From IMG/VR virus record IMGVR_UViG_3300045988_110853, positions 68,077-132,076 of that record: a stretch of DNA of 64,000 bases. One strand, written 5' to 3'. Below, in pieces: positions 1-11,960 of this stretch (position 1 is its first letter; the number at the start of each line of letters is the position of its first letter). A model generated the notes under the pieces. The model made no database searches. It saw only the letters and a list, made by a program, of their open reading frames with translations, and was not told where the DNA came from. The DNA comes from a virus. The translations under genes were made by a program, and so were the position numbers.

Positions 1-30
1 GTGTTTTTTTCAAAATTTTTGCGGTCTTTC

Positions 31-174
31 TCAATATACGAAAAATAAGAAATTAAGCAAAATTAGCACAGGAATAGCGTAGACGATATTAAAAGAGTCC
101 CACCCGAGACTTTCACAGGCGTAAGCAAAAATAAAGCCAAAAACGAGGCCGAAAATGCCGATTAAAATAATCAT
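31..174 (-). CDS. small membrane protein (about 47 aa, two hydrophobic helices)
   Basis: Start ATG overlaps the TGA stop of the upstream gene (ATGA coupling). An AGAGGA Shine-Dalgarno sits 6 nt upstream. The coordinates are trimmed from the track ORF 31..216. Confidence 0.4.
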   Translation of the reverse strand: MIILIGIFGLVFGFIFAYACESLGWDSFNIVYAIPVLILLNFLFFVY

Positions 175-434
175 TCTAAATCCTCTATATGACCATAGTG
201 TTCGTTGATATGCCATTCAAGATAGGCATTAGTCGCAATCTGAATTTCCCTATCCAGCCAATCATAAAACTCTTCGGGGTCGCAGGTCGCGCGTTCATCA
301 ATAATATCAATAAGAGAAACGCGATGAGCGAGAAATTCCGAAATATCAAGAGAATCCATAGAAGAAAGAAGTTCTTCCACACATTCTCCGCGAGTAGGGA
401 ACTTTTCAGTAGAAAAATCGTGAGTGTAATACAT
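171..434 (-). CDS. hypothetical early protein (87 aa)
   Basis: Intact ORF with an AAAGGGGA ribosome-binding site 7 nt upstream. A promoter (TAGACA-N17-TATACT) lies at 466-494. The stop codon is TGA. Confidence 0.6.
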   Translation of the reverse strand: MYYTHDFSTEKFPTRGECVEELLSSMDSLDISEFLAHRVSLIDIIDERATCDPEEFYDWLDREIQIATNAYLEWHINEHYGHIEDLE

Positions 435-465
435 TGTTTATATCCCCTTTCTTTACTGTAAACAT

Positions 466-494
466 AGTATAGCAGATTATTACATTTTTGTCTA
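466..494 (-). promoter_or_regulatory. sigma-A-type promoter TAGACA-N17-TATACT
   Basis: The hexamers were read directly. It lies upstream of gene 171-434. Confidence 0.5.
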
Positions 495-552
495 TTGGTA
501 AAATACACAAATTTAGGAAAATAATTAGTTGTATTTTTAGCTAAATTTCCTA

Positions 553-581
553 TTGACAAATTGCTGGGACGGTGGTATAAT
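553..581 (+). promoter_or_regulatory. plus-strand consensus promoter TTGACA-N17-TATAAT, convergent with the early genes
   Basis: Read directly. It is followed by a GC hairpin (589-617) and then terminator 661-696. Confidence 0.5.
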
Positions 582-591
582 GGAAATTCCG

Positions 592-700
592 GCCGTGGCA
601 GGCGCAAACGGCCGGCCATTTTATCACACTATTGGATTTTTGTCAATAGGTAAAATGACTAAAAAAATGAGGTGAATTTTCACCTCATTTTTATTTGTGA
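592..700 (+). ncRNA. candidate antisense small RNA of about 105 nt (promoter 553-581, GC hairpin, terminator)
   Basis: A promoter, a structured GC stem-loop and a rho-independent terminator lie on the plus strand with no plus-strand ORF. Confidence 0.25.
661..696. terminator. hairpin GAGGTGA-attttc-ACCTC flanked by an A-run and a T-run (bidirectional terminator)
   Basis: Read directly. Confidence 0.6.
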
Positions 701-870
701 TAACTGGTAGTGATGGTTTTGAAAATCTGATAAATGCTTTCATCTTCCAGTAGCTTCTGGATAAAAGCATCAGCTTCTTCCTCGGAATCAAAACTAACCC
801 GATTGTCATAATACTGATCCCAAGGATTCTTACCGCTGTATTCGACACTGAATGTCTTTTCAATTTCCAT
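691..870 (-). CDS. hypothetical acidic protein (59 aa; MEIEKTFSVEYSGKNPWDQYYDNR...)
   Basis: Hand-translated; it falls below the ORF-track length cut-off. A GAGGGGAG ribosome-binding site precedes it and the stop is TAA. The overlapping track ORF 624..863 looks non-protein-like and runs across a terminator. Confidence 0.5.
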   Translation of the reverse strand: MEIEKTFSVEYSGKNPWDQYYDNRVSFDSEEEADAFIQKLLEDESIYQIFKTITTSYHK

Positions 871-872
871 TT

Positions 873-1064
873 TTAGTTCTCCCCTCTCATTGACCGCTCA
901 TAATTCTCAATCATGCAACGAACCATCATACCGCCGACGGAATAAGAAGGGGCAGGCTTGCCATTCACATAGTCCTTGATGATGATTTTTTCATCTTCGT
1001 TTAACTGGTTAATGCCCTCTTTGATAGCGTTAATGAGTTCCCAATTGTAAGAAGTTTCAAGCAT
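873..1064 (-). CDS. hypothetical protein (63 aa)
   Basis: Start assigned at MLETSYN with an AAAGGAAAGGA ribosome-binding site. The promoter TTGACA-N17-TATAAT at 1095-1123 is embedded in a hairpin. Confidence 0.55.
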   Translation of the reverse strand: MLETSYNWELINAIKEGINQLNEDEKIIIKDYVNGKPAPSYSVGGMMVRCMIENYERSMRGEN

Positions 1065-1094
1065 TTTTATCAATTCCTTTCCTTTGATGGTTTT

Positions 1095-1123
1095 ATTATA
1101 GCACAAGGGGCTTATTTTGTCAA
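1095..1123 (-). promoter_or_regulatory. consensus promoter TTGACA-N17-TATAAT embedded in hairpin 1101-1134
   Basis: The -35 lies in the hairpin loop and the -10 immediately 3' of the stem. Confidence 0.6.
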
Positions 1124-1142
1124 GCCCCTTGTGCTATTTTTT

Positions 1143-1595
1143 TTAGCGCTCAGATACGATACTCAGATAGCGGTTAATCATATCCATTTCGCAACCCATG
1201 TCCCGCCAATCGCAAACCACATACCCAATGAGTTCGCCGTCTGTGGTAATCGGATAAACGCCGTAAGTGCTATTATAAGCAAATGGCTTTCTTTCATCTT
1301 CCCAATCAATAGGAGTGTAGGCCGGGAAGTTTTCCATACCCCGCAGTTTCACGGTAGTGTCATAGATTGCAATAGGACGCAGACCGGAATTTGATGCCAT
1401 TGTAATAGCGGTTCGCATAGCATCTTCGCTCAGCGAGCCAAGCACCGAATACCTCTTGAAGCAAACGCAGTCGTTATCTTCAATGAAGATTTCCAGCGGG
1501 TCGCCCTCGCGGATTTTCAGAGTGCGCCGAATCTCTTTCGGGATAACCACACGTCCAAGGTCATCAATTCTGCGAACAATACCAGTAGCTTTCAT
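1143..1595 (-). CDS. AbrB/SpoVT-family (swapped-hairpin, MazE-fold) DNA-binding regulator with an extra C-terminal domain of about 100 aa
   Basis: The N-terminus MKATGIVRRIDDLGRVVIPKEIRRTLKIREGDPLEIF closely resembles the Bacillus AbrB/SpoVT N-domain (MKSTGIVRKVDELGRVVIPIELRRTL...). The gene has its own promoter at 1626-1654 and an AAAGGGG ribosome-binding site. Confidence 0.75.
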   Translation of the reverse strand: MKATGIVRRIDDLGRVVIPKEIRRTLKIREGDPLEIFIEDNDCVCFKRYSVLGSLSEDAMRTAITMASNSGLRPIAIYDTTVKLRGMENFPAYTPIDWEDERKPFAYNSTYGVYPITTDGELIGYVVCDWRDMGCEMDMINRYLSIVSER

Positions 1596-1625
1596 TTTAA
1601 TTTTCCCCTTTCATTTGATACATTA

Positions 1626-1654
1626 AGTATAGCAGAACAAAAGACTTTTGTCAA
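1626..1654 (-). promoter_or_regulatory. promoter TTGACA-N17-TATACT for the AbrB-like gene
   Basis: Read directly. Confidence 0.6.
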
Positions 1655-1659
1655 GCCTT

Positions 1660-2133
1660 TTATTCAAGATTTTTGCTTTCCGCGACAAAATATTTTGCTT
1701 CATACTGATTTGCGATAGCCTTGACTTTTGCGCTTTCCTTTTGGGTCGCGCAGTAAAAATTGAAAAGCGTATGTTTATCGCTCAATTCAATGTAAGAGTG
1801 TGGGACGTCATGTAAATCAAAATCAATGGTATTAGTGTATTTTGTCGGGACAGTCAGCTCGACTTTCCAAAGTTTATCCTTGCGCGCCTTTTCCTCAATC
1901 CACTTGACAAGGTAAACGCCCACGAAATTACAAACGGCAGTAATAGCCATTTTCAACCAAATAGGCATACCGTCCGCGGAAGTCAGCACAATTACATAGG
2001 AATAAAAACCGTATGTAATAGCATTGATGAAAGATGCGCTAAACTTTCCGCCCTTGACAGTCAAAATGCTTTTGATAGTTGACAGAATCACATTCACCGC
2101 CGTGCAAAGCGCGAACAGAAGAATTGTATTCAT
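1660..2133 (-). CDS. membrane protein (N-terminal TM helices plus a soluble C-terminus), 157 aa
   Basis: Intact ORF with hydrophobic N-terminal segments. The stop is TAA. Its start overlaps the stop of the next gene (ATGA). Confidence 0.55.
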   Translation of the reverse strand: MNTILLFALCTAVNVILSTIKSILTVKGGKFSASFINAITYGFYSYVIVLTSADGMPIWLKMAITAVCNFVGVYLVKWIEEKARKDKLWKVELTVPTKYTNTIDFDLHDVPHSYIELSDKHTLFNFYCATQKESAKVKAIANQYEAKYFVAESKNLE

Positions 2134-2369
2134 TCAATCACCTCAATATCGCAGTAAATACAGTCGGTAATATCGACGTATTCTTCAAAACTCATTCGCT
2201 TATCATCGCGGTGTGTAAAGTCAATGTAAGCATTTTCACCGTGGAGATTGTTTTCTTCATTGTAGGCGTGAGTGGCGTAGTCAAAAGCCTTGATAGCATC
2301 GGCTTCATTATAGACTACAATTTCCTTGACTTCGGGAGCATCATACCAAATAGTATATTTCTTTTTCAT
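2130..2369 (-). CDS. hypothetical protein (79 aa)
   Basis: Start at MKKKYTIWYD with an AAAGGAAAGGG ribosome-binding site. The track start is upstream at a GTG. The stop is TGA. Confidence 0.55.
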   Translation of the reverse strand: MKKKYTIWYDAPEVKEIVVYNEADAIKAFDYATHAYNEENNLHGENAYIDFTHRDDKRMSFEEYVDITDCIYCDIEVIE

Positions 2370-2442
2370 TATTATCACCCTTTCCTTTTTCTATTATAAT
2401 AATATCATATTATAATAGAAATGTCAATAGAGAGTTTTTAAT

Positions 2443-2601
2443 TTACTCTTTTAATTTTTCTAATAGGTCATCAGCACATTCATAGCTGATGCTCCGGCGG
2501 TCGCACTCGTTGGACAAAGGACAACAAGCGCAGTCATTAAAGGTTTCCGTCCAAGAGCGCAACCAGTCAATCAGGCGTAGAGTATCAACTTCTTCATACA
2601 T
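2443..2601 (-). CDS. cysteine-rich small protein (52 aa; ...CACCPLSNECDRR...)
   Basis: Hand-translated. An AAAGGAG ribosome-binding site lies 8 nt upstream. It overlaps the stop of the upstream gene and ends in TAA. Confidence 0.45.
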   Translation of the reverse strand: MYEEVDTLRLIDWLRSWTETFNDCACCPLSNECDRRSISYECADDLLEKLKE

Positions 2602-2938
2602 TGTTTTCAGTCTCCTTTACTCGGACAAAAAAGACCTTGTTATAGATTTTTGTTGCTTTAAGGTCAATCCAAAAATACACATTTCCGCATACTCGATAGA
2701 TTTTACAAGTTTCTCCGCTAACCTTTTTGACTTCCTCAAACTTCTCGGGCGTAGTAGGGTGGAAAATTGTCAGTTTGAGAAACATCGAATAGAAAGTTAA
2801 AGGAACGAACCCGATAATAATAGCAATCCACGCGAGAATGTCAGTTAAGGTATTTCTCCATTCACACCATTCATCAGTAATTGTAGCGAACGCAATACCC
2901 ACACAAAACGCGAGAATCAACCAATACCAAGCTACCAT
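2594..2938 (-). CDS. membrane protein (114 aa)
   Basis: Intact ORF with hydrophobic N-terminal helices and an AAAGGGGGGGA ribosome-binding site. Confidence 0.55.
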   Translation of the reverse strand: MVAWYWLILAFCVGIAFATITDEWCEWRNTLTDILAWIAIIIGFVPLTFYSMFLKLTIFHPTTPEKFEEVKKVSGETCKIYRVCGNVYFWIDLKATKIYNKVFFVRVKETENNV

Positions 2939-2989
2939 TGTTTTATCCCCCCTTTATTTGATGTATACATTTTACCAGATTATGGGAAT

Positions 2990-3166
2990 TTTGTCTATTG
3001 GCAGAATAGCCAAAAATCCGCTCGAAAATTTGTTGAATCTACATCTTGACAAAAACTCGGCGCGCCACAGTCGTTCGCGCGCCGGCCATTTTATCACATT
3101 TAAGGAACTTTGTCAATAGTGAAATTAAACAAAAAAAATCTCCCAAATTTGGGAGATTTTTCATTT
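2990..3166. repeat. intergenic cassette copy B (stem CGGCGCGCC..GGCGCGCCG, covariant with copy A)
   Basis: The stem-loop lies at 3050-3078 and is followed by ggccattttatcac as in copy A. Confidence 0.6.
3131..3166. terminator. hairpin TCTCCCAAATTTGGGAGA with flanking A/T runs
   Basis: Read directly. Confidence 0.6.
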
Positions 3167-3332
3167 AATTTTCTACTGCTTCAAGGTCGGCGAGAATGGG
3201 GATAAGCTTATCCTCAATGAGCGAAACGCGGTTAATCATTTCTTGGTCGGGGGTAGGAAGCTTCTGAATCCCATAACGCGCCATCATACAGACCTTTTCG
3301 ACAACTTCGCTAAGCTTTTCCTTATTTTCCAT
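3165..3332 (-). CDS. hypothetical protein (55 aa)
   Basis: Start at MENKEKL with a TAAGGAGA ribosome-binding site. The stop is TAA and a terminator follows at 3131-3166. Confidence 0.5.
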   Translation of the reverse strand: MENKEKLSEVVEKVCMMARYGIQKLPTPDQEMINRVSLIEDKLIPILADLEAVEN

Positions 3333-3441
3333 TTTTCTATTCTCCTTAAAATAAATTTTTTGGAAAGGGTGGCAGTTGATAGGCTCAACTGCCAAAGCCA
3401 TAGGAAAGGGGGAGAGAAACGCGAACAAATGTTCGGTTTTA

Positions 3442-3681
3442 TCAGGGAATAATCAGTTCCGCATCGTAGACAGGCCGAACCATACAGGGCGCGCCAAAGC
3501 AGTCGAGATTGTAAGTGTCCAAATTGAGAGCGTTCCATTCTTCTGCGCCGGTATTTTCATCAACCACTGACGCAGTTTTGATGTAATAGACGTTTCCGGA
3601 AGCGGGGTCTTGAAAAATCATACCTTCGGGGAGGTCTTCAAATGCAACCATTTTGTTGCTATGCTTAACAGTAATTTTCAT
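3442..3681 (-). CDS. hypothetical protein (79 aa)
   Basis: An AAGGAG ribosome-binding site lies 8 nt upstream of the ATG (MKITVK...). The stop is TGA. Confidence 0.55.
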   Translation of the reverse strand: MKITVKHSNKMVAFEDLPEGMIFQDPASGNVYYIKTASVVDENTGAEEWNALNLDTYNLDCFGAPCMVRPVYDAELIIP

Positions 3682-3686
3682 TTCAT

Positions 3687-4040
3687 TCACTCCTTATTAT
3701 AAAAGCGGTAAGCCCATTCAACGATTTCGTGGCTTGTAGTAGTCCATTCCTTTTTGGGGCTGTCAAACTTTTCCGCGTATTTTTTGACGTAGTCGTTGTA
3801 TTCCATGCGTGCGGTATCGTATGCTCCAATAGCTACAAGCAAGGACTGTTTTGCTTTTTCAGCATCAGAGACGGCTTTCTTGCGGTCTGCGCCCTCGGGG
3901 TAAAGGTCGATTACGCCTAAACGAGTAATGACTTGTGTTGTTTTTTCATACACGCGGTCGCGCTCTTCCCAAACCTCATAGAGCAGTTCGTCCGCGCGAT
4001 TCTCATAGGGATTGAATGGCTTTTTCTTCTTACCGAACAT
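3687..4040 (-). CDS. hypothetical protein (117 aa, MFGKKKKPFNPYENRADELLYEVWEERDRV...)
   Basis: The C-terminal 117 aa of the track ORF 3687..4328 are protein-like. The upstream part runs through intergenic sequence and the stop of the next gene. Confidence 0.5.
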   Translation of the reverse strand: MFGKKKKPFNPYENRADELLYEVWEERDRVYEKTTQVITRLGVIDLYPEGADRKKAVSDAEKAKQSLLVAIGAYDTARMEYNDYVKKYAEKFDSPKKEWTTTSHEIVEWAYRFYNKE

Positions 4041-4368
4041 TTTTCTTTTTCTCCTTTTCTTTCTTGTTCCAAATTCTGTCGAAGAACGCATTTGCGAGAA
4101 CACGCTTGTAAAGGTTATCAGGCATAGGGCGTTCGCCGTGCTTATTTCTCCAAATCGCGGTGATTTTATCAATATCCGCGATATAGGCGGTAATGAGTGT
4201 GCCGTCCGTAGCACTACGAACAAGAAGAACGCCTGTTGTAGTGATAGTGTAGAGGACATCTTCCTCAACGCTGTCGATATATGGCTCACCAATACCGATA
4301 TTGTCATAGATGAAGAACAAGCGGTCAATGCGGTCTTGCGTGGCGTGTTTTGACATTCTGATAAGCAT
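4030..4368 (-). CDS. hypothetical protein (112 aa)
   Basis: Start at MLIRMSK with an AGAAAGAGG ribosome-binding site. A promoter lies at 4406-4434. Confidence 0.55.
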   Translation of the reverse strand: MLIRMSKHATQDRIDRLFFIYDNIGIGEPYIDSVEEDVLYTITTTGVLLVRSATDGTLITAYIADIDKITAIWRNKHGERPMPDNLYKRVLANAFFDRIWNKKEKEKKKNVR

Positions 4369-4405
4369 TTGATTTACCTCTTTCTTTCTCTCTTGGATTG
4401 ATTGT

Positions 4406-4434
4406 ATTATACCATATAGGGAGGGGCTTGTCAA
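4406..4434 (-). promoter_or_regulatory. promoter TTGACA-N17-TATAAT within hairpin GGGAGGGGCTTGTCAAGCCCCT
   Basis: Read directly. Confidence 0.6.
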
Positions 4435-4440
4435 GCCCCT

Positions 4441-4590
4441 TTAATACAATTGTTCCCCATCGTGGTAGCGCTCATATTCCGCTTCAAGGAAGTCGAGAAT
4501 AGTTTCAAAGTCGTCTGCGTCCGCGGGGTCTGCAAAGGTCTTTTCAAGAACTTCGTTAGTGTGTCTATTGTAAACTCGAACCATATCCAT
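4441..4590 (-). CDS. hypothetical acidic protein (49 aa, MDMVRVYNRHTNEVLEKTFADPADADDFETILDFLEAEYERYHDGEQLY)
   Basis: Hand-translated with an AGAAAGAGGTAAG ribosome-binding site. The stop is TAA. Confidence 0.45.
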   Translation of the reverse strand: MDMVRVYNRHTNEVLEKTFADPADADDFETILDFLEAEYERYHDGEQLY

Positions 4591-4659
4591 TTTACTTACC
4601 TCTTTCTTGATTGTATATGTATTATATCATGCGAAAGGGCTTTTGTCAAGCCCTTTTTA

Positions 4660-4866
4660 TCAGAAATGATAATTTCTGATGATGACGTCGAACTTGGGAG
4701 CATATACGGTTTTCCACTGTTCTTCAAGGGTCTTATCATTCGTGCGATATGCTTCCCACGAGACTGCGCCATAGGCGTTGTGCTTGAAAAGCTCGGCATC
4801 ACTGGGCATTTGCTCGGCATAGAGAAGCTGGGTCTTGATAAAAGAATGAATGTTGTAGTTAGTCAT
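4660..4866 (-). CDS. hypothetical protein (68 aa)
   Basis: Start at MTNYNIHS. It has a conserved leader with a GAGGT ribosome-binding site. A promoter TAGACA-N17-TATACT lies at 4906-4934. Confidence 0.5.
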   Translation of the reverse strand: MTNYNIHSFIKTQLLYAEQMPSDAELFKHNAYGAVSWEAYRTNDKTLEEQWKTVYAPKFDVIIRNYHF

Positions 4867-4905
4867 TTTATTTACCTCATCTTTCTGTTCCCTTGGAACA
4901 ATTAT

Positions 4906-4934
4906 AGTATAGCAAATGCTTAGGCATTTGTCTA
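4906..4934 (-). promoter_or_regulatory. promoter TAGACA-N17-TATACT
   Basis: It lies upstream of the conserved leader of gene 4660-4866. Confidence 0.5.
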
Positions 4935-4944
4935 TTGACGGATC

Positions 4945-4974
4945 GCACAAAATTGGGAAAAATAATTTGTGCAA
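4945..4974. promoter_or_regulatory. inverted repeat GCACAAAATT-N9-AATTTGTGCAA (operator-like)
   Basis: Read directly. Confidence 0.4.
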
Positions 4975-4992
4975 ATTTTCGCAACTTTTTGC

Positions 4993-5021
4993 TTGACAAA
5001 TTGCTGGCCCTGTGATATACT
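4993..5021 (+). promoter_or_regulatory. plus-strand promoter TTGACA-N17-TATACT, convergent with the early genes
   Basis: Same architecture as 553-581. A GC hairpin lies at 5029-5055 and a terminator at 5109-5140. Confidence 0.5.
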
Positions 5022-5029
5022 GAAAATTC

Positions 5030-5140
5030 CGGCCGCAGCGTGCGTTGGCGGCCGGCCGAATTATACCACATTGAGATGGTTTTGTCAATAGTCAAATGAA
5101 ACAAAAATTTCAGGCGAGATTTGGTTATCTCGCCTGAAAA
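5030..5140 (+). ncRNA. candidate antisense small RNA of about 105 nt, a paralogue of the 592-700 element
   Basis: Same promoter/hairpin/terminator arrangement as at 592-700. Confidence 0.25.
5109..5140. terminator. hairpin CAGGCGAGAT..ATCTCGCCTG plus AAAA
   Basis: Read directly. Confidence 0.6.
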
Positions 5141-5347
5141 TTATTCGTCCCAAATAGCTCCCGCAATCCAAAAGTATTCATAGCGGAGTTTTGACTGAAT
5201 CGCAAATAAAGAATCTGCGATTTCTCCACCAATTTCCCGGTCATCTGCGACTGAAAGTGTTTGGCTTTCTCGCGCGATTCTTTGCGCCAGCTTTTCAAGG
5301 GCTTCCGCCTGTTCTTTCAAAGCCTGCGGAATAGTTTTTTCATTCAT
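5141..5347 (-). CDS. hypothetical protein (68 aa)
   Basis: Start at MNEKTIP with a GGAAAGGGG ribosome-binding site. The stop is TAA. Confidence 0.5.
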   Translation of the reverse strand: MNEKTIPQALKEQAEALEKLAQRIARESQTLSVADDREIGGEIADSLFAIQSKLRYEYFWIAGAIWDE

Positions 5348-5349
5348 AA

Positions 5350-5694
5350 TCAATTCCCCTTTCCGAAATTAGAAGTTAATTCTAATGTATGTCCGCACTC
5401 GTCGCAATACCAATAGTAATAAACCGTGCCGTATTTACCATGAGAAGCATTTACAAATTTCATTTCATTTCCGCAGATAGAACAATAGCCATCATTCCAC
5501 GCTTTTTTGTCGGCATTATGTTCTGCGATTATCGCGCCCGTCATACCATAGCCAAGAGCGCACGAAATGAGAATACCGACTAACAATCTCACTATTGGGT
5601 GGTGTTTATCCAGATTACACCAGCAGATAAGGCAAACAAATAGTGCCATAATTGCACTAAGGATTCCACCAATAATTAAGAATTCTGCGCTCAT
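5350..5694 (-). CDS. membrane protein with a C-terminal CxxC...CxxC zinc ribbon (114 aa)
   Basis: Start at MSAEFLIIGG with a GGAAAGGGGAAATAAAAATG ribosome-binding site. The sequence contains ...YCSICGNEM...YCDECGH.... Confidence 0.55.
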   Translation of the reverse strand: MSAEFLIIGGILSAIMALFVCLICWCNLDKHHPIVRLLVGILISCALGYGMTGAIIAEHNADKKAWNDGYCSICGNEMKFVNASHGKYGTVYYYWYCDECGHTLELTSNFGKGN

Positions 5695-5696
5695 TT

Positions 5697-5768
5697 TTAT
5701 TTCCCCTTTCCGCATTTAACGCATTGAGCGTGTGTTCCGCACTTTCCATCGCAATAAGGACATTCCAT
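5697..5768 (-). CDS. possible 23-aa zinc-ribbon microprotein (MECPYCDGKCGTHAQCVKCGKGK)
   Basis: Hand-translated with an AAAGGAAAGGGG ribosome-binding site. A promoter lies at 5799-5827. Its stop overlaps the ribosome-binding site of the next gene. Confidence 0.3.
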   Translation of the reverse strand: MECPYCDGKCGTHAQCVKCGKGK

Positions 5769-5798
5769 TGATTTATTCCCCTTTCCTTTGATACATTA

Positions 5799-5827
5799 AG
5801 TATAGCAGAAAAGGGGCTATTTGTCAA
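5799..5827 (-). promoter_or_regulatory. promoter TTGACA-N17-TATACT within a hairpin
   Basis: Read directly. Confidence 0.55.
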
Positions 5828-5846
5828 GCCCCTTTTCTCATTTTTT

Positions 5847-6209
5847 TTATTTTTCTTTTCTGATGGAATAGTAGGCTCTATTCCCTTTCTGCGTGCGGGT
5901 CAACTTTCTGTCAATCCAACAAAGATAACCGCAATACCACGAAATAGTGGAGCAGGAATATTCTTTGCCAGTTTCACGGTAAAGAATAAACTGAATCTCA
6001 GTAGGACGCAGGGGCTTTTCTGCCTTTGAGAGAACATCGAGCATCATGTTTTTCATCATGGTGTTGCGGATTTCCTGTTTCAGCTTCTGCGCTTCCTTGG
6101 CTTCCTGATACTGTAAGCAAGCCCTCTCCGCGTGAATTTTGTCAATCCCCTCGAAAGTGCCATTGTCAAGAAATTTCTTCAAAAGACTATAAGTTTCACC
6201 GTTAATCAT
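5847..6209 (-). CDS. hypothetical protein, possibly a winged-helix DNA-binding regulator (120 aa)
   Basis: Intact ORF with an AAAGGGGAAC ribosome-binding site. A promoter lies at 6241-6269. The C-terminus ...KGNRAYYSI... resembles a wHTH wing. The call is tentative. Confidence 0.5.
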   Translation of the reverse strand: MINGETYSLLKKFLDNGTFEGIDKIHAERACLQYQEAKEAQKLKQEIRNTMMKNMMLDVLSKAEKPLRPTEIQFILYRETGKEYSCSTISWYCGYLCWIDRKLTRTQKGNRAYYSIRKEK

Positions 6210-6240
6210 TTTGTGTTCCCCTTTCTTTTACTATACTTGT

Positions 6241-6269
6241 ATTATATCATCTACTTCTGGATTTGTCAA
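6241..6269 (-). promoter_or_regulatory. promoter TTGACA-N17-TATAAT
   Basis: Read directly. Confidence 0.6.
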
Positions 6270-6309
6270 GGGCTTTTTGGAAAAAGAGGGAAAAATTTTC
6301 CCTCTTTAT

Positions 6310-6582
6310 TTATCCCCAAAAAACCGAAAGAACGCCGTCAATGTAGCTGGTTTTATAACCATAATTCTGCATGATAGTTTTGCAAGCCTGCTTGACGCCC
6401 TTTTCCTTTAATGAAGCAAGAGAACATTCATAAAGTGTTTCTCCCGTTCCTGCCACTCGCTCAATTTCTGGCATGATGTGGTCTTCGATGAACGCCCGCG
6501 CAAGGGCATTATTTTTAGCTTGAATTTCTTTGCGGACTTCTTCGGCTTTGCGCGTCATTTCATAAGCGTATTTAATTTCCAT
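6310..6582 (-). CDS. hypothetical protein (90 aa)
   Basis: Intact ORF with an AAAGGGAG ribosome-binding site. A promoter lies at 6613-6641. Confidence 0.55.
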   Translation of the reverse strand: MEIKYAYEMTRKAEEVRKEIQAKNNALARAFIEDHIMPEIERVAGTGETLYECSLASLKEKGVKQACKTIMQNYGYKTSYIDGVLSVFWG

Positions 6583-6612
6583 TTTGTTTTCTCCCTTTCT
6601 CTTGATGCTTTT

Positions 6613-6641
6613 ATTATAGCATATAGGGCTTGTTTTGTCAA
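6613..6641 (-). promoter_or_regulatory. promoter TTGACA-N17-TATAAT embedded in hairpin 6617-6650
   Basis: Read directly. Confidence 0.6.
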
Positions 6642-6659
6642 GCCCTATATGCTATTTTT

Positions 6660-6968
6660 TTAGCAGTAGGCGAGATTCCCGCGCGCCCAGCCATATACGC
6701 TGATTTGATTGCACGCTTTGCCAATTTCGAGCGCCTGCTTCTTGGTCTGGACTCTCTTGGACTTGTCGATATAGTAGATGCCATTCGCGAACCAAACACC
6801 GCAGTTTCCGCCATATTCCTTGACCGCGTTAATGGCTTCGCGTGCGGTCTTACATTCCACGCCATCGGTAGCAACCTGCCAGCCGGACTTGTAATTGACT
6901 TTCTTGCCATATTTAAGGGTCAGACCGTCGTTTTCAACGAGCTTACGAATGGAACGAATGTTAATCAT
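6660..6968 (-). CDS. hypothetical phage protein (102 aa)
   Basis: Intact ORF with a GGAAAGGGAAAAC ribosome-binding site. The stop is TAA. The antisense track ORF 6630..7016 is rejected. Confidence 0.55.
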   Translation of the reverse strand: MINIRSIRKLVENDGLTLKYGKKVNYKSGWQVATDGVECKTAREAINAVKEYGGNCGVWFANGIYYIDKSKRVQTKKQALEIGKACNQISVYGWARGNLAYC

Positions 6969-7059
6969 AATGTTTTCCCTTTCCGGTTTGTTTGGGTTTT
7001 CCTTCCCTTACTGTGATTATAGTATAGCACCGATTCGGGATTTTGTCTATTGGCAGAAT

Positions 7060-7089
7060 ACACAAACTTTCACCATAAAAATTGTGCAA
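7060..7089. promoter_or_regulatory. inverted repeat ACACAAA-N14-ATTGTGCAA (operator-like)
   Basis: Read directly. Confidence 0.35.
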
Positions 7090-7165
7090 ATGGTCTATTG
7101 ACAGCAAATTCCGGCCGCGCCTGGCGTGCACGGCCGGCCGAATGAATATGCAAAATGGAGCGTAT

Positions 7166-7208
7166 AAAAATTCAGCGGATTTTTATGCAATCCGCTGAAT
7201 TTTCATTT
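7166..7208. terminator. hairpin ATTCAGCGGAT..ATCCGCTGAAT with flanking A/T runs
   Basis: Read directly. Confidence 0.6.
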
Positions 7209-7215
7209 CAAATTT

Positions 7216-7455
7216 TTAACCATCAACATAAATGATAAGAATATCGCCCTTAGCTTTCAAACCAGTGACAGGCAATCCCAGCACCCATTCTTCACTTGCA
7301 CCCAAAAAATTGCCATTCAAAGTCATATGACCCTTGCGGTCTTTGAGATAACGGCCATCAGTGTTTTCATTTATCACTTCGACGCCGTTCCCCTCATAGA
7401 ACATCAACGCACCTTTTACCGTGCCAATCACATTTTTAACCATGCTTAAAGTCAT
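7216..7455 (-). CDS. hypothetical protein (79 aa)
   Basis: Start at MTLSMVKN. Its leader of about 45 nt is identical to that of gene 4660-4866. A promoter TTGACT-N17-TATACT lies at 7486-7514. Confidence 0.5.
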   Translation of the reverse strand: MTLSMVKNVIGTVKGALMFYEGNGVEVINENTDGRYLKDRKGHMTLNGNFLGASEEWVLGLPVTGLKAKGDILIIYVDG

Positions 7456-7485
7456 TTTGTTTACCTCATCTTTCTGTTCCCCTTG

Positions 7486-7514
7486 GAACAATTATAGTAT
7501 AGCATAGGGTATAG
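7486..7514 (-). promoter_or_regulatory. promoter TTGACT-N17-TATACT
   Basis: Read directly. Confidence 0.55.
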
Positions 7515-7532
7515 CAAAAGTCAATAGTCAAA

Positions 7533-7575
7533 ATGGTAAAAAGAATCGGCAGGATTTTGTGTATCCTGCCGATTC
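7533..7575. terminator. hairpin GAATCGGCAGGAT..ATCCTGCCGATTC plus TTTT
   Basis: Read directly. Confidence 0.6.
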
Positions 7576-7577
7576 TT

Positions 7578-7772
7578 TTAGTCTTCCCAACTCTCGATGA
7601 CTTCGCCGGTCATAGCGTCGATAATGTCAACCGAAAGAACATTATCTGCGTCGGCGAACTTCTGACCGAGGGCGTATGCGTTTTCCTGTCCCGCGACAGA
7701 CACTTCATAGCGATAGCGGTTGTTATCACCAGCCTTGTAGTTGTAGTAGTTAACAGAAACGATAAATAACAT
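7578..7772 (-). CDS. hypothetical protein (64 aa)
   Basis: An AAAGGGGAAC ribosome-binding site precedes it. A promoter lies at 7803-7830. The stop is TAA. Confidence 0.5.
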   Translation of the reverse strand: MLFIVSVNYYNYKAGDNNRYRYEVSVAGQENAYALGQKFADADNVLSVDIIDAMTGEVIESWED

Positions 7773-7802
7773 TTTTTTGTTCCCCTTTCTTTTTATACTC
7801 TT

Positions 7803-7830
7803 ATTATAGCACGGTTTTAGGATTTGTCAA
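7803..7830 (-). promoter_or_regulatory. promoter TTGACA-N16-TATAAT
   Basis: Read directly. Confidence 0.55.
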
Positions 7831-7854
7831 TAGTTTTTTTGAAAAAAGTTTGAA

Positions 7855-7892
7855 AAAAAATAAGGGCGTTTCCGCCCTTATTTTTCATAAAC
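7855..7892. terminator. hairpin AAGGGCG-TTTC-CGCCCTT with flanking A/T runs
   Basis: Read directly. Confidence 0.6.
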
Positions 7893-8135
7893 GATAATGT
7901 TGTTGCCTAACTTTTCAACGCGAGAATCTTCACAAAAGTGATAGGTAAAATCCGCGTAAAGATGTTTGAGAAATTCGCGTCTCCATTCGCGGGACTTCGG
8001 CTCTAATTCAAAAAGAATGTAAAGCGTTTCCTCTAATCGGTCGAGAAAGTTTTCAGTGTCCGCGATGTTGAACTTGCCCGCGAGCTTTGGCGTGGGGTTA
8101 TAAGCGCTAATAGTGAGAATGTTGTAAGTTGTCAT
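7878..8135 (-). CDS. hypothetical protein (85 aa)
   Basis: An AAAGGAGA ribosome-binding site precedes it. A promoter lies at 8166-8194. Confidence 0.5.
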   Translation of the reverse strand: MTTYNILTISAYNPTPKLAGKFNIADTENFLDRLEETLYILFELEPKSREWRREFLKHLYADFTYHFCEDSRVEKLGNNIIVYEK

Positions 8136-8165
8136 GGAAAAATCTCCTTTTCATTTGATGTTTTT

Positions 8166-8194
8166 ATTATACACGATAGTATGGAACTTGTCAA
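8166..8194 (-). promoter_or_regulatory. promoter TTGACA-N17-TATAAT
   Basis: Read directly. Confidence 0.6.
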
Positions 8195-8199
8195 TACTT

Positions 8200-8240
8200 A
8201 AAATAGAAAAAAGAGAAGTTTTTTCAACTTCTCTTTTTCA
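8200..8240. terminator. hairpin AGAGAAGTT..AACTTCTCT plus TTTT
   Basis: Read directly. Confidence 0.55.
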
Positions 8241-8328
8241 GCTTCTTTTCTGCCCATTCAATCAGCGCGCCCGCGGTGATTGTGCCAACGTAAATGAAAA
8301 GTAAAACTAAACCATCATGCAAACTCAT
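8224..8328 (-). CDS. possible 34-aa membrane microprotein (MSLHDGLVLLFIYVGTITAGALIEWAEKKLKKRS)
   Basis: A GGAGG ribosome-binding site lies 9 nt upstream. It has a single hydrophobic helix. A terminator follows. Confidence 0.35.
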   Translation of the reverse strand: MSLHDGLVLLFIYVGTITAGALIEWAEKKLKKRS

Positions 8329-8329
8329 T

Positions 8330-8458
8330 TTAATATTCCTCCACATACTCTGTAAAGACAAGCTCCCAGTCCGGGCCGAGATCCGGAGTTTTGCAGTATA
8401 ATGACTGTCGAATGTCATGCTCATTAGTGATTTTGTTGATAAACTCGAATTCATACAT
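8330..8458 (-). CDS. hypothetical small protein (42 aa, MYEFEFINKITNEHDIRQSLYCKTPDLGPDWELVFTEYVEEY)
   Basis: Hand-translated with a GAAAAGGAG ribosome-binding site. A promoter lies at 8490-8518. The track ORF 8224..8454 in another frame is probably an artefact. Confidence 0.4.
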   Translation of the reverse strand: MYEFEFINKITNEHDIRQSLYCKTPDLGPDWELVFTEYVEEY

Positions 8459-8489
8459 TGTTGTTATCTCCTTTTCTTATTGTATCTAC

Positions 8490-8518
8490 ATTATAGCAGA
8501 CAACAGGGCATTTGTCAA
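8490..8518 (-). promoter_or_regulatory. promoter TTGACA-N17-TATAAT
   Basis: Read directly. Confidence 0.6.
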
Positions 8519-8524
8519 TACCAT

Positions 8525-8562
8525 TTATAAAAAAATGTACGAGGTTTAATCCTCGTACATTT
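8525..8562. terminator. hairpin TGTACGAGG..CCTCGTACA with flanking A/T runs
   Basis: Read directly. Confidence 0.55.
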
Positions 8563-8842
8563 CCATTAACGATTTGATTTTTTCAATCGCATTTTCAATT
8601 TCTTCTACATAGTCTGCTTGTTCTTCGCTTGCGCGCATTGCCTGTTCATATGCGTCATAGATGGCTTCGCACTGTTCACGGGTATATTCTTCTTCTGGTG
8701 CGTGCTCCATGGCGACGACTGCCGCCCACGCGAGCGTTTCCGCGTCATCGAGGTTATCAGCCTTTTCCGTGGCAGTGGTAAGTTCGTGTTCGAGGCGCGT
8801 TTTTTCGAGCGAGAGGGTCTTGAGAAATTCGGTATTAGTCAT
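8546..8842 (-). CDS. acidic hypothetical protein (98 aa)
   Basis: An AAAAGGAGA ribosome-binding site precedes it. A promoter lies at 8875-8902 and a terminator at about 8520-8560. Confidence 0.55.
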   Translation of the reverse strand: MTNTEFLKTLSLEKTRLEHELTTATEKADNLDDAETLAWAAVVAMEHAPEEEYTREQCEAIYDAYEQAMRASEEQADYVEEIENAIEKIKSLMEMYED

Positions 8843-8874
8843 TGTGGTGTATCTCCTTTTCTTTTGATACCTCT

Positions 8875-8902
8875 ATTATAGCACTTCTGGACTGAATGTC
8901 AA
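8875..8902 (-). promoter_or_regulatory. promoter TTGACA-N16-TATAAT
   Basis: Read directly. Confidence 0.55.
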
Positions 8903-9180
8903 TAGGTTTTTGAAAAAAATATTTATTCATCAGGGCTGTATAAATATTCATGTATAAATATTCATTTTCGGGTGCATAAAGGCGACTGGCATAATGCACA
9001 AATTCGTTTGAAAATTTTTGTGCAACTTGCCTATTGCAAAACTCGGCGCGCTGCGGCCCACAGCGCGCCGGCCAAATGTATATGTATGATTATTCATGTA
9101 TATTCATTGCATATTCATTGTATATTTATTCATACATAATATGCAAAAATAGAGAGAGACTTAATAAGCCTCTCTCCACA
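8893..9180. repeat. intergenic cassette copy E, with flanking TATTCAT heptamer repeats
   Basis: The stem-loop lies at 9044-9073. Seven TATTCAT copies lie at 8925-8970 and 9090-9135. Confidence 0.6.
8996..9025. promoter_or_regulatory. inverted repeat GCACAAA-N14-TTTGTGCAA (operator-like)
   Basis: Read directly. Confidence 0.4.
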
Positions 9181-9526
9181 CCTTGATTATTTCATCATCT
9201 GCTATATCATCTGTGTCATTGTCGTTTATCCACAAAAGCAGAAAATCATTATCGTCAATGGTCATATTCTCAACTTCCCATTGGTTGCCGCGTTCGTCCA
9301 GTAGCGTGATAGTGTTACCATTTCGGGAAGCGACCTCTGCGCCGATAAAGCGTATGCTTCCTCTCTCTGTGCCAGCGCCACACCATTCATCTAATGCGGT
9401 GAGGTCGTAGGACTGCGGCGCTTCCTCGCAGGCTTCCGCGGTTGCGTGGTCATGGAATGAGCCGAAGAAAGACACGGAGAGAATGATGGCAATGACCATG
9501 GTGATGATTTTGGAAATGTTTTTCAT
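9161..9526 (-). CDS. secreted or membrane-anchored protein (121 aa; N-terminal signal/TM, acidic C-terminus)
   Basis: Intact ORF with an AGAAAGAGG ribosome-binding site. It has a hydrophobic N-terminus. Confidence 0.55.
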   Translation of the reverse strand: MKNISKIITMVIAIILSVSFFGSFHDHATAEACEEAPQSYDLTALDEWCGAGTERGSIRFIGAEVASRNGNTITLLDERGNQWEVENMTIDDNDFLLLWINDNDTDDIADDEIIKVWREAY

Positions 9527-9548
9527 TTTGTTTTACCTCTTTCTTACT

Positions 9549-9692
9549 TTATAGGTTAGTAGCGATAGTGACAACAGCAATAAGCATGAGCGTGCTTGAG
9601 ATAGCTTTACCTATGCTCTTGCTATCTATGGCATAGACAAAATTATATGCGCTTATAGCGGTAAGCACAATAATAGCGGCAATGATAGACAT
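9549..9692 (-). CDS. possible 47-aa membrane protein
   Basis: Hand-translated with an AGAGGGGAG ribosome-binding site. The sequence is two hydrophobic segments. Confidence 0.35.
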   Translation of the reverse strand: MSIIAAIIVLTAISAYNFVYAIDSKSIGKAISSTLMLIAVVTIATNL

Positions 9693-9722
9693 GGCATATG
9701 CTCCCCTCTTTGAGCGAGTGGG

Positions 9723-10196
9723 TTAAACCCACTCGCTGAATAACTCACTGATGAAGTCATCGTGTACGTCATCAGGCAGTTGATCGATGGTGCACTCATA
9801 GGTGCTTACCACGGTAAGCGATGAGCCATTCTCAAGGTTCTCGCGCTCAAACTTATCACGCTCGCCAGACGAGAGGAAAAATGCGGTATAATCGTAAGTG
9901 TCTTCTCCATCATTGATGGAATAGTCCACCACCTTAAAGCGTGTTTTGTTCCAGAGGTTCGCTATGATGGACAAATCCATGGCCAGCTCTTCCTCGCGGC
10001 GGACAGCTTCGAGAGACGCCTTATACTTGCGCCATGCGGCTACCGTAAAGTCTCTTATGCCGCACCCAATAAGACAATGGTATTCCTCTAAGTCTTTGAT
10101 AACCAGTTTACGTCCCTCGCGCACCATATCCCAAGCATCTTCCGCCATTGCGTTGATGGTGACAGCATCATATTTATGCAAGCCCTGAATTTTCAT
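9723..10196 (-). CDS. hypothetical protein (157 aa)
   Basis: Intact ORF with a GGGAAGGG ribosome-binding site. A hairpin at 9712-9735 overlaps the stop. Confidence 0.55.
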   Translation of the reverse strand: MKIQGLHKYDAVTINAMAEDAWDMVREGRKLVIKDLEEYHCLIGCGIRDFTVAAWRKYKASLEAVRREEELAMDLSIIANLWNKTRFKVVDYSINDGEDTYDYTAFFLSSGERDKFERENLENGSSLTVVSTYECTIDQLPDDVHDDFISELFSEWV

Positions 10197-10571: not shown

Positions 10572-10666
10572 TTTGTAAATCCTCTTTTCATGTATTTTGC
10601 TGTTCGGTGTTCCGCCGTTCAGCATGGTTACATGGTAGCAGATTCAGCCACGGGATACAATTGACG

Positions 10667-10712
10667 GATTGCACAAAGATTTGTTTTGTACGGGGCGGGC
10701 TTTTGTGCAATC
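10667..10712. promoter_or_regulatory. perfect 11-bp inverted repeat GATTGCACAAA-N24-TTTGTGCAATC (candidate operator) at the early/late junction
   Basis: Read directly. Related half-sites GCACAAA/TTTGTGCAA also lie at 4945-4974, 7060-7089, 8996-9025 and 503-538. Confidence 0.45.
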
Positions 10713-10999
10713 TACCGCCGGGCGGCACCCTTGCATCATACCTTTGCATTTTTATTCACTCAAAAATGAATAAAACCTGCATGGGGCGGGGTGTATTTCG
10801 GGAAAAATAAATTTTTATTTATTATTTTTTCTTTTGCCTGGTCAAAACACAATCTAAATCAATTTTCAATTTCAAATTACGGATTAAAACAATAATCTTA
10901 AATTACGATTTTTTCTTTCTGCCCCTTTTAGGCTTCTCTCTCCACATAAGGGTATATAATCCAGAAGTAGCAGAATAAGTAGCTTTCTGCTGATACTTT

Positions 11000-11907: not shown

Positions 11908-11936
11908 TTGACAGAAAAAATTTTTTCAAGTATAAT
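11908..11936 (+). promoter_or_regulatory. consensus promoter TTGACA-N17-TATAAT at the head of the plus-strand late/structural operon
   Basis: Read directly. A GGAGGT ribosome-binding site and ATG 11961 follow. Confidence 0.6.
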
Positions 11937-11960
11937 ATAAATATAGACTGGAGGTAAAAA

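Follow-up and report, generated by a model that had tools for sequence, protein, structure and literature searches.

The DNA considered here is a window of 64,000 nucleotides, positions 68,077 to 132,076 of the IMG/VR virus record IMGVR_UViG_3300045988_110853, which stems from a large tailed phage, siphovirus-like and with a Clostridia-type host, and which carries in its early region five copies (A to E) of an intergenic cassette built around a GC hairpin. To our knowledge, stop-codon-recoded gut phages are uncultured and their early transcription has not been described. The early arm of the window (1-11.9 kb) is composed of about 30 small minus-strand genes in the standard code, almost all of them orphans, with products of 30-160 aa of which nearly all are without family matches; its GC content is 40% as compared with about 30% in the late arm, and nearly every early gene is preceded by a near-consensus sigma-A-type promoter, cTATTGACAaa-17-TGnTAtAAT. 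Read in the direction of these genes, a cassette consists of the terminator of the previous module, a promoter P1 (in A, B and C only), the hairpin in the frame GG-hairpin-A-R-T-T-T, a reverse promoter Pas (in A and C only), an operator-like inverted repeat of the type TTGCACAA-N15-TTTGTGCA, a second promoter P2 of the type CAATAGACA-17-TATACT and the first gene of the module.

The five all-GC hairpins are each exactly 27 nt long and are all located on the minus, early-gene strand. Hairpins A (589-615), B (3058-3084) and C (5029-5055) possess an 8-bp stem and an 11-nt loop, hairpin D (7111-7137) a 7-bp stem with a 13-nt loop or, if one U·G is allowed, 10 pairs, and hairpin E (9044-9070) a 10-bp stem with a 7-nt loop, with folding energies from -17 to -26 kcal/mol. 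As a previous sequence-only reading of the stretch had noticed, two stem types alternate, one with CCGGCCG (A, C and D) and one with CGGCGCGC (B and E); its positions for A, C, D and E are right, the stem-loop of B, given as 3050-3078, having been placed about 8 nt too far to the left. The heptamer GCCGGCC is confined to the five hairpin sites in the 64 kb, with 8 matches on both strands as compared with 0.73 expected; a count of 8 was attained in none of 100 shuffles. A covariance model derived from relatives recovers exactly the five hairpins of the window, all on the minus strand and with E-values of 2e-10 to 6e-15 (A, 579-625, 2e-13; B, 3048-3094, 1e-11; C, 5019-5065, 6e-15; D, 7101-7147, 2e-10; E, 9034-9080, 1e-10), and its sole other match in the window is the bare palindrome of E on the opposite strand (E=0.36).

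A hairpin family in the early regions of related phages

Relatives were gathered by exact-pattern scans for the two stem types, which led to numerous AT-rich contigs of IMG/VR, with lengths of 100-197 kb in many cases, and by a degenerate-pattern scan of bacterial assemblies, which led to contigs of gut metagenome-assembled genomes (MAGs), mostly short with a few of 55-164 kb. The MAG contigs are labelled as Eubacteriales, Acutalibacteraceae, Lachnospiraceae, Gemmiger and others, all have the same cassette context and are probably mis-binned phage contigs; further hairpins with different stems were found around the seed sites. The search of other genomes with a covariance model, which the sequence-only reading had proposed, was run and yielded 239 further matches at E<=1e-3 in 685 kb of related AT-rich loci. 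All 43 loci with at least two copies keep these on one strand, with a median spacing of 2074 nt, and the orientation of the hairpin agrees with the coding strand in 72 cases, opposes it in 3 and is ambiguous in 80. Both in the window and in phage phAss-1 the copies are confined to the early region: none is located in the other 55 kb of the window, and the complete phAss-1 genome holds only two, both in the minus-strand early arm near 129 and 133 kb. The element is real, non-random and widely conserved. The spacing of about 2 kb had suggested a replication-wide (Okazaki) priming signal, an idea that was abandoned since neither the window nor phAss-1 has the elements outside its early region.

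In sense orientation the consensus reads wwTGG - C1 S G S S C6 G7 nnn A11 C12 G13 nn Y16 G17 nnn C21 G22 S S C S G27 - A R T T T. Hardly any variation is seen at positions 1, 3, 6 and 7 and at those with which they pair; pairs 2/26, 4/24 and 5/23 alternate between C-G and G-C and are at times T-A, and pair 8/20 varies widely. The length is mostly 27 nt, with minor classes of 25 and 23 nt, divided between stem and loop from 7/13 to 10/7; the loop is semi-conserved (ACG..YG) and the flanking GG and A-R are unpaired.

Megablast of positions 1-10000 against 50,697 phage records gave no match, and a distant blastn search with cassette A gave only a weak match, to phAss-1. Phage phAss-1 is a member of the 'Caudoviricetes code 15 clade' with Eubacteriales as predicted hosts (PMC10607447), and promoters, hairpins and repeats are not mentioned in the paper on it (PMC10607447). 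For the 64 kb Rfam gave no match at gathering thresholds, and at E<=5 the matches fell on terminators and AT-rich stretches with none centred on the GC hairpin, RF02631 (E 4.4) spanning cassette C. Judged by Rfam, the phage databases and the phAss-1 paper, the hairpin family and the cassette architecture are new, the composite promoter/stem-loop kind being already known. Among cultured relatives none with the full element was found; Enterococcus phage VRE9_4 shows one weak, short look-alike (covariance-model E=0.07), ttttGG-CCGGCCG-cgca-CGGCCGG-AA, at the edge of a small-gene arm (about 115.85 kb; L194 25853-25890), which could be an experimental entry point. In phAss-1, a sequence ending ...GGTTCGACTCCCGTACACTCCACCA just upstream of a cassette (about 129.2-129.3 kb; L189 ~29230-29330) resembles the 3' half of a tRNA that was not annotated, or else a tRNA-like element.

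Compensatory changes and strand preference

In 81 distinct sequences, a set chosen or aligned by its stem as was also an alignment of 150 matches, 98.8% of the cells are paired, with 118 both-side changes as compared with 36.5 in shuffles, and none of 500 shuffles reaches this number; the 150 matches behave similarly (99.2% of cells paired, 172 both-side changes), and in slid controls only 28-47% of the cells are paired. A pairing-blind test was run besides, with a pattern that admits S at three variable positions per arm. Here 20 of 24 distinct matches in AT context are fully complementary as compared with 1 in 8 expected, and of the GC-rich chance matches to the same pattern 7 of 54 are. The complementary matches, the shuffles and the slid controls together support the earlier proposal that the stem-loop is a selected single-strand structure with compensatory changes. 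Covariation alone is, however, no proof of selection on RNA, as template switching could keep a DNA palindrome symmetric.

Orthologous cassettes with downstream flanks that are 97-98% identical and with identical loops have stems which differ by two compensated double changes. In three orthologues (L084 ~10509, L060 ~10908, L167 ~2870) the loop gtggaacgt is common and the stems are different but fully compensated, and the stem appears to evolve faster than its surroundings.

At stem positions 7-8, read in sense orientation, G·T or T·G is found 8 times versus A·C once, and internal wobbles between Watson-Crick pairs favour the sense strand by 7 versus 1; the phAss-1 hairpin carries a further wobble, G3·T25, and the T-run is always on the sense side. 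The wobble bias and the sense-side T-run favour a hairpin that acts on the gene-sense strand, be it as RNA or as non-template/lagging-template DNA, and disfavour the antisense RNA from Pas as the selected form.

Promoters nested against the hairpin

P1 is located on the minus strand at 618-646 in A and at 3088-3116 in B (both TTGACA-17-TGnTAAAAT, 11/12) and at 5060-5088 in C (TTGACA-17-TGnTATAAT, 12/12), with the TG present in all three, and ends in A 2 nt before the hairpin. The conserved minus-strand -10-like tail followed by tttgtcaatag, which had been ascribed to all five cassettes, corresponds to P1 of A, B and C; D and E are without such a promoter. The plus-strand consensus promoters noticed in A and C are confirmed as Pas at 553-581 (12/12) and 4993-5021 (TTGACA-17-TATACT, 11/12), both convergent and with the TG present, the -10 of Pas in A ending 7 nt from the hairpin. 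As to the TTGACA hexamer that each cassette was said to contain, B, D and E carry only a plus-strand hexamer by the hairpin that is not followed by a -10: TTGACA at 3046-3051 in B, which looks like a remnant of Pas and recurs in relatives, TTGACA at 7098-7103 in D and TTGCAA at 9034-9039 in E. In these three cassettes the spacer and -10 of Pas look as if they had been deleted between two AATTT repeats. In D and E a CATATT-like hexamer lies 7 nt upstream of the hairpin, from which the start would fall on the conserved GG.

Promoters were counted in 136 distinct copies with context. P1 is present in 65 of these, its -10 ending 2-4 nt before the stem in all 65, and Pas in 47, its -10 ending 6-9 nt, mostly 7-8 nt, from the other foot in all 47; 29 copies possess both promoters and 53 (39%) neither, as do D and E. 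Where the two face each other (56 distinct pairs, nearly all with a GC-rich middle), a distance of 36-38 nt separates their -10 hexamers, and this holds even for a hairpin of 25 nt. This face-to-face geometry, previously judged an unusual arrangement, is thus conserved in relatives. Judged from the distance between the -10 boxes, the predicted starts of P1 and Pas would therefore be about 24 bp apart and two polymerases could not bind together.

With assumed start sites, predicted by standard rules, the P1 RNA would start inside the 5' arm, with G as the first nucleotide of 62 of the 65 RNAs, provided that transcription starts at the 6th nucleotide after the -10, and would form a shorter hairpin with no unpaired 5' nucleotide in 52 of 65. 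The predicted Pas RNA would have 0-3 nt before the full complementary hairpin (mean minimum free energy -18 kcal/mol), and the RNAs from Pas of A and C are predicted to be about 108-118 nt long and to end at the bidirectional terminator of the upstream module. The proposal that the hairpin sits at the predicted +1 of a minus-strand promoter holds in part, for the near-consensus promoters of A, B and C; D and E lack one, and a start inside the arm would leave a truncated hairpin. The layout likewise agrees with a Pas that fires into hairpin and terminator in A and C, the antisense RNA, estimated previously at roughly 105 nt, being predicted to be slightly longer. Transcriptional interference or antisense control, the function that had been suggested, can on the other hand hardly be the core role: D, E and 53 of the 136 relatives keep a perfect, covarying hairpin without either promoter, and therefore such control cannot be the essential role of the hairpin, and the wobbles disfavour an antisense RNA.

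Two other kinds of promoter were considered and do not fit the observations. A promoter that reaches across the extruded hairpin, with the -35 on one side and the -10 on the other, does not fit the spacings. The N4-type hairpin promoter has a 5-7 bp stem and a 3-nt loop on the template strand and is read by a phage single-subunit virion RNA polymerase. Here the loops have 7-13 nt and not 3, the wobble bias points to the non-template (sense) strand and host-type promoters precede nearly every early gene of the window.

The hairpin at module boundaries

The order terminator, hairpin, inverted repeat, P2 and gene holds in the window and also in distant relatives without P1 and Pas; in L015 and many MAG contigs, gene, terminator, (T)TTTGG, hairpin, T-run, inverted repeat, promoter and gene follow one another. 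In the window, bidirectional terminators precede A (663-692, closing the upstream module), B (3133-3162) and C (5108-5139), the first and the last being the predicted 3' ends of the respective Pas RNAs, a terminator-like hairpin precedes D (7164-7206) and a minus-strand terminator E (9149-9179). The operator-like inverted repeats are found at 503-534 in A (ATACACAA..N..TTGTAT, at a fixed position relative to the hairpin in relatives), 3005-3038 in B (degenerate), 4944-4974 in C (CGCACAAAA-N-TTTGTGCAA), 7058-7089 in D and 8994-9025 in E (ATGCACAAA-N-TTTGTGCAA), so that the repeats and terminators of the first description are confirmed; the repeat follows the hairpin at a fixed offset, of about 13-22 nt without and about 45-60 nt with Pas. 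P2 is located on the minus strand at 466-494 in A (TAGACA-17-TATACT, 10/12, TG present; upstream of gene 171-434), 2969-2997 in B (TAGACA-17-TAAAAT; gene 2594-2938), 4906-4934 in C (TAGACA-17-TATACT; gene 4660-4866) and 7021-7049 in D (TAGACA-17-TATACT; gene 6660-6968), and in E a promoter with the sequence TTGACA-16-TATAAT (12/12) lies at 8875-8902 (-) upstream of gene 8546-8842. No paralogous first genes of modules were found.

Alignment of orthologous cassettes gave no clean mosaic junctions at strict thresholds. At relaxed thresholds several orthologous pairs have a downstream flank that is 95-98% identical and an upstream flank of about 60% identity, and the reverse was never seen. As every break lies 5' of the hairpin and none 3' of it, the hairpin would belong to the downstream module, of which these alignments suggest it to be the upstream edge. 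In L015 the hairpins are terminator-like, with 10-bp stems, 7-nt loops and U4-5 tails, and one of them follows a gene without any other U-tract terminator.

A proposed composite boundary cassette

The closest known counterparts are the PeSL elements, in which a strong sigma-70-like early promoter goes with a GC-rich stem-loop that overlaps the promoter boxes or lies between them (Arbiol et al., 2010; PMC2839356). They are situated among the small ORFan early genes of T4-type phages, their stem-loops have been proposed, with tests, to terminate upstream transcription (PMC2839356), and they are points of recombination and modular exchange (PMC2839356; Comeau et al., 2014, PMC4122927). By analogy, we tentatively interpret the hairpin as a PeSL-like composite terminator/promoter cassette that would mark the upstream boundary of early-gene modules of about 2 kb. 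In both systems a strong host-sigma promoter goes together with a GC stem-loop (here the P1 of A, B and C and of 65 of 136 relatives, with 11-12/12 and TG in the window and none in D and E), the stem-loop adjoins the promoter (here 2-4 nt after the -10) and the repeats are intergenic among small ORFan early genes. The mosaic junctions that several orthologous pairs show at the 5' edge of the hairpin may reflect a modular exchange as at PeSLs. Closer still is the likeness of 'simple' units of the window in which a hairpin holds the -35 in its loop. Such long hairpins, with the -35 TTGACA of the next gene in the loop, lie at 1098-1137, 5807-5838, 6616-6655 and similar sites; the T-run of these ordinary early units is on the plus strand and so would terminate antisense and not sense transcription.

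The resemblance is one of analogy and not of homology. Lineage and host are unrelated, the phage here being siphovirus-like, with sigma-A-type promoters and a Clostridia-type host, and its terminase, portal and tape-measure proteins pointing to large Firmicutes siphoviruses and phAss-1 and not to T4-like myoviruses. In contrast to PeSL, where the stem-loop overlaps the promoter boxes or lies between them, the hairpin comes after the -10, at the start site. Its geometry is fixed at 27 nt, with a semi-conserved loop, covarying stems and GG/A-R flanks; a convergent promoter often accompanies it, at a constant distance of 36-38 nt, and in every case an operator-like repeat and then a further promoter come after it. 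The hairpin also persists without any promoter and scores poorly as a terminator. Convergent interfering promoters with an adjacent regulator site also recall P2/186-type switches (pR-pL of 186; cf. PMC5001618, PMC7498355). These are present once per genome in temperate phages, with promoters tens of bp apart, and are not known to include a hairpin, whereas here at least 5 copies occur per early region, in which about 24 bp separate the predicted starts and the overlap holds a GC hairpin.

What we infer from this anatomy is the following course of events. In read-through RNA from the upstream module, the hairpin and its short U-run would attenuate or pause transcription and thereby insulate the operator-controlled P2. 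Transcripts from P1, nested against the hairpin, would start within the 5' arm and escape the full hairpin, and the short base-paired 5' end that they keep would protect the mRNA. Pas, where present, would start at the other foot, and its antisense RNA, about 110 nt long, would bear a hairpin at the 5' end. With only 36-38 bp between the -10 boxes, polymerases at Pas and P1 would exclude each other, resulting in promoter interference.

Several observations weigh against this interpretation. The features of canonical intrinsic terminators, a short loop of 3-8 nt and a U-tract directly after the stem, are not seen together in the window hairpins: the loops of A-D have 11-13 nt, and the conserved A-R parts the stem from only 3-5 U. 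A d'Aubenton-Carafa-type discriminant, rough as it was combined with modern energies, is negative for all five (-12 to -39), and a terminator scan flags D alone of the five, by counting a G·T pair. A canonical terminator is already present about 25-80 nt upstream, which would make a terminator role redundant. A plain terminator needs no ACG..YG loop, no invariant C1, G3, C6 and G7, no GG and A-R flanks and no fixed 27 nt, and no model explains the conserved loop, the flanks and the fixed length. A 5'-cap role cannot cover the 39% of copies without an abutting promoter, and replicative template switching can change both arms of a DNA palindrome in a compensatory manner without any selection on RNA.

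Possible alternative functions of the hairpin

Stable stem-loops at the 5' end are known to stabilize single-gene mRNAs, as in Escherichia coli ompA and in the Bacillus subtilis aprE and ermC leaders. A hairpin a few nucleotides from the RNA 5' end is predicted here for P1 and Pas RNAs alike, and mRNA stabilization would be the main function if the hairpin capped any RNA from P1, Pas or weaker promoters against 5'-dependent RNases, with promoterless copies as relics. The tight spacing of promoter and hairpin on both sides fits, as do, with the assumed starts, the first G of 62 of 65 P1 RNAs, the 52 of 65 without an unpaired 5' nucleotide and the 0-3 unpaired nucleotides of Pas RNAs; in D and E the CATATT-like hexamer would place the start at GG. 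We nevertheless consider this doubtful, as the 53 of 136 promoterless copies keep perfect stems that covary across relatives, P1 RNA would hold a truncated stem only, the wobble bias disfavours the hairpin on the Pas strand and the conserved loop and flanks are left unexplained. Unlike the single-gene leaders, the element is moreover a repeated, covarying family with a conserved loop.

The unexplained loop, flanks and length keep alive the idea of a protein that reads the element as RNA or single-stranded DNA. In its broadest form, the hairpin would be recognized by a dedicated factor, of the phage or of the host, that orders early transcription by module, either as a new nut-like signal for antitermination or polymerase loading or as an attC-like, structure-specific recombination site at which TAG-recoded Clostridia phages could exchange early-gene modules, P1 and Pas forming a hairpin-centred switch; to this we assign a low likelihood, comparable to that of the mRNA stabilizer. 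If it is true that a specific factor reads the conserved loop, this would constitute a new regulatory system.

Somewhat less likely still is the specific case of a protein-recognized RNA element, that is a nut-like site for a processive antiterminator or polymerase modifier with which transcription would pass the many hairpins inside a module, or a processing site. A semi-conserved ACG..YG loop, invariant unpaired purine flanks and a fixed geometry with a stem that is free to covary are what would be expected of it, a single copy heads each module, the sense-strand bias fits and A-R/UUU resembles RN|WUU-type endonuclease sites. Lambda nut/boxB is similarly a small hairpin just past early promoters that heads units with terminators, and differs in its 5-bp stem, its GNRA-like pentaloop, its boxA partner and its full transcription, as compared with a GC stem of 7-10 bp, a loop of 7-13 nt, no boxA and a local promoter that starts inside the stem. 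It is precisely this predicted start of P1 inside the 5' arm which counts against the RNA element, as the main local promoter would not yield it in full; in addition, no boxA-like partner and no Rfam match were found, nor a candidate RNA-binding protein, the early proteins being orphans save for one with an AbrB/MazE domain. In a search for a conserved hairpin-binding protein, clustering of open reading frames near cassettes gave, besides orphans, only the AbrB-like protein, a membrane protein, what is probably an exonuclease and candidate winged-helix proteins; the 'cluster' that ranked first was an artefact of reading frames that run through the cassette.

Similarly improbable is a function at the DNA level, as a single-stranded DNA hairpin or cruciform for module exchange comparable to PeSL recombination or integron attC, as a supercoiling-sensitive structure between the promoters or as a palindromic double-stranded operator of a dimeric protein with arms matched by template-switch correction. 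The length is fixed at 27 nt as the division into stem and loop varies, C1, G3, C6 and G7 mirror C21, G22, C25 and G27, mosaic junctions fall on the 5' edge, flanks with 97-98% identity and the same loop enclose differently compensated stems, the AT-rich flanks would favour extrusion and PeSL recombination provides a precedent. For a double-stranded operator, however, symmetry at positions unconstrained by a protein is not expected; loops of 7-13 nt extrude poorly as cruciforms, the bias of G·T over A·C points to one strand, no recombinase or HUH nuclease is seen in the early region of the window, and that most of phAss-1 and the remaining 55 kb of the window lack the element speaks against a general role in replication.

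A selfish or host-derived repetitive palindrome (REP- or MITE-like) without function for the phage is highly improbable: although the copies are multiple intergenic GC palindromes and a 27-nt inverted repeat of 81% complementarity flanks hairpin A, that repeat consists of the two convergent promoters with unrelated spacers, stems differ between copies of one genome, both strand and position are kept strictly, a GTAG motif is lacking, as is any RAYT-like or transposase gene, and the bacterial-genome scan led, instead of to chromosomal REP arrays, to AT-rich contigs of gut MAGs in which the context is that of the phage cassette, and otherwise to unpaired chance matches in GC-rich genomes.

With respect to applicability, the hairpin provides a countable punctuation mark, in about 240 copies, for the early modules of recoded gut phages, and its covariance model can be used to annotate early regions and module boundaries in metagenomic phages. 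The cassette with its compact size of about 200 bp is suited to the study of terminator/promoter nesting and promoter interference in Firmicutes and may offer a handle on the shuffling of ORFan early genes.

Phage context and further features of the window

On the plus strand from about 11.9 kb to 63 kb, long open reading frames are found only if TAG is a sense codon: the late arm has 22 reading frames of at least 200 aa with TAG as sense versus 11 with the standard code. Within 11958-63006 (+) late reading frames carry up to 60 in-frame TAGs each, and the early arm follows the standard code. No tRNA gene was found in the 64-kb window, and a suppressor tRNA, if any, must therefore be encoded outside it, as in phAss-1. 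The late-arm products include a sigma-factor-like protein, the large terminase, the portal, a structural protein and a tape-measure-like protein of 2981 aa. The best match of the terminase is an uncultured human-gut phage fragment with 60% identity, followed at 44-47% by Enterococcus Schiekvirus-type phages, Geobacillus virus E3 and phAss-1, which are large Firmicutes siphoviruses. A crAss-like phage with a virion RNA polymerase, suspected from the TAG recoding and the giant reading frames, was discarded as the terminase, portal, structural and tape-measure proteins lead to large Firmicutes siphoviruses and phAss-1.

Of the early proteins, only that encoded at 1143-1595 (-) has a family match: Pfam recognizes in it a DNA-binding domain of the AbrB/MazE (SpoVT-AbrB) type (E 3e-10), and the protein is kept in 21 related loci. 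The C-terminal half of the product of 5847-6209 (-) resembles, as judged by eye, a winged-helix DNA-binding domain, and a similar-looking yet unrelated winged-helix-like protein (L130 6736-7329) is kept in 43 related loci; both products are candidate binders of the TTGCACAA..TTTGTGCAA repeat.

Cassette E is flanked (8940-8975 and 9085-9135) by iterons, with ATGAATATRCA every ~11 bp in 3-5 copies on one side and two copies of TATAAATATTCAT on the other, of which relatives have more copies, and gCATATTCATTcGG is located directly 5' of hairpin D. The iterons around E and gCATATTCATTcGG at D may represent a replication origin or a regulator-binding array. An AT-rich non-coding stretch with direct repeats (…tctgaaattgaaaattgattt…) extends over 10600-10920. 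In the relative L107, on the reverse strand, these direct repeats lie about 100-330 nt upstream of a sixth hairpin, ahead of an extra cassette which is not present in the window upstream of the orthologous gene 9161-9526.

The plus-strand arm is opened by the gene for the sigma-factor-like protein (11958-13016 (+); phrog_5767, E 9e-55), which probably represents the switch to late transcription; a 12/12 host-type promoter at 11908-11936 precedes this gene, which diverges from the early arm.

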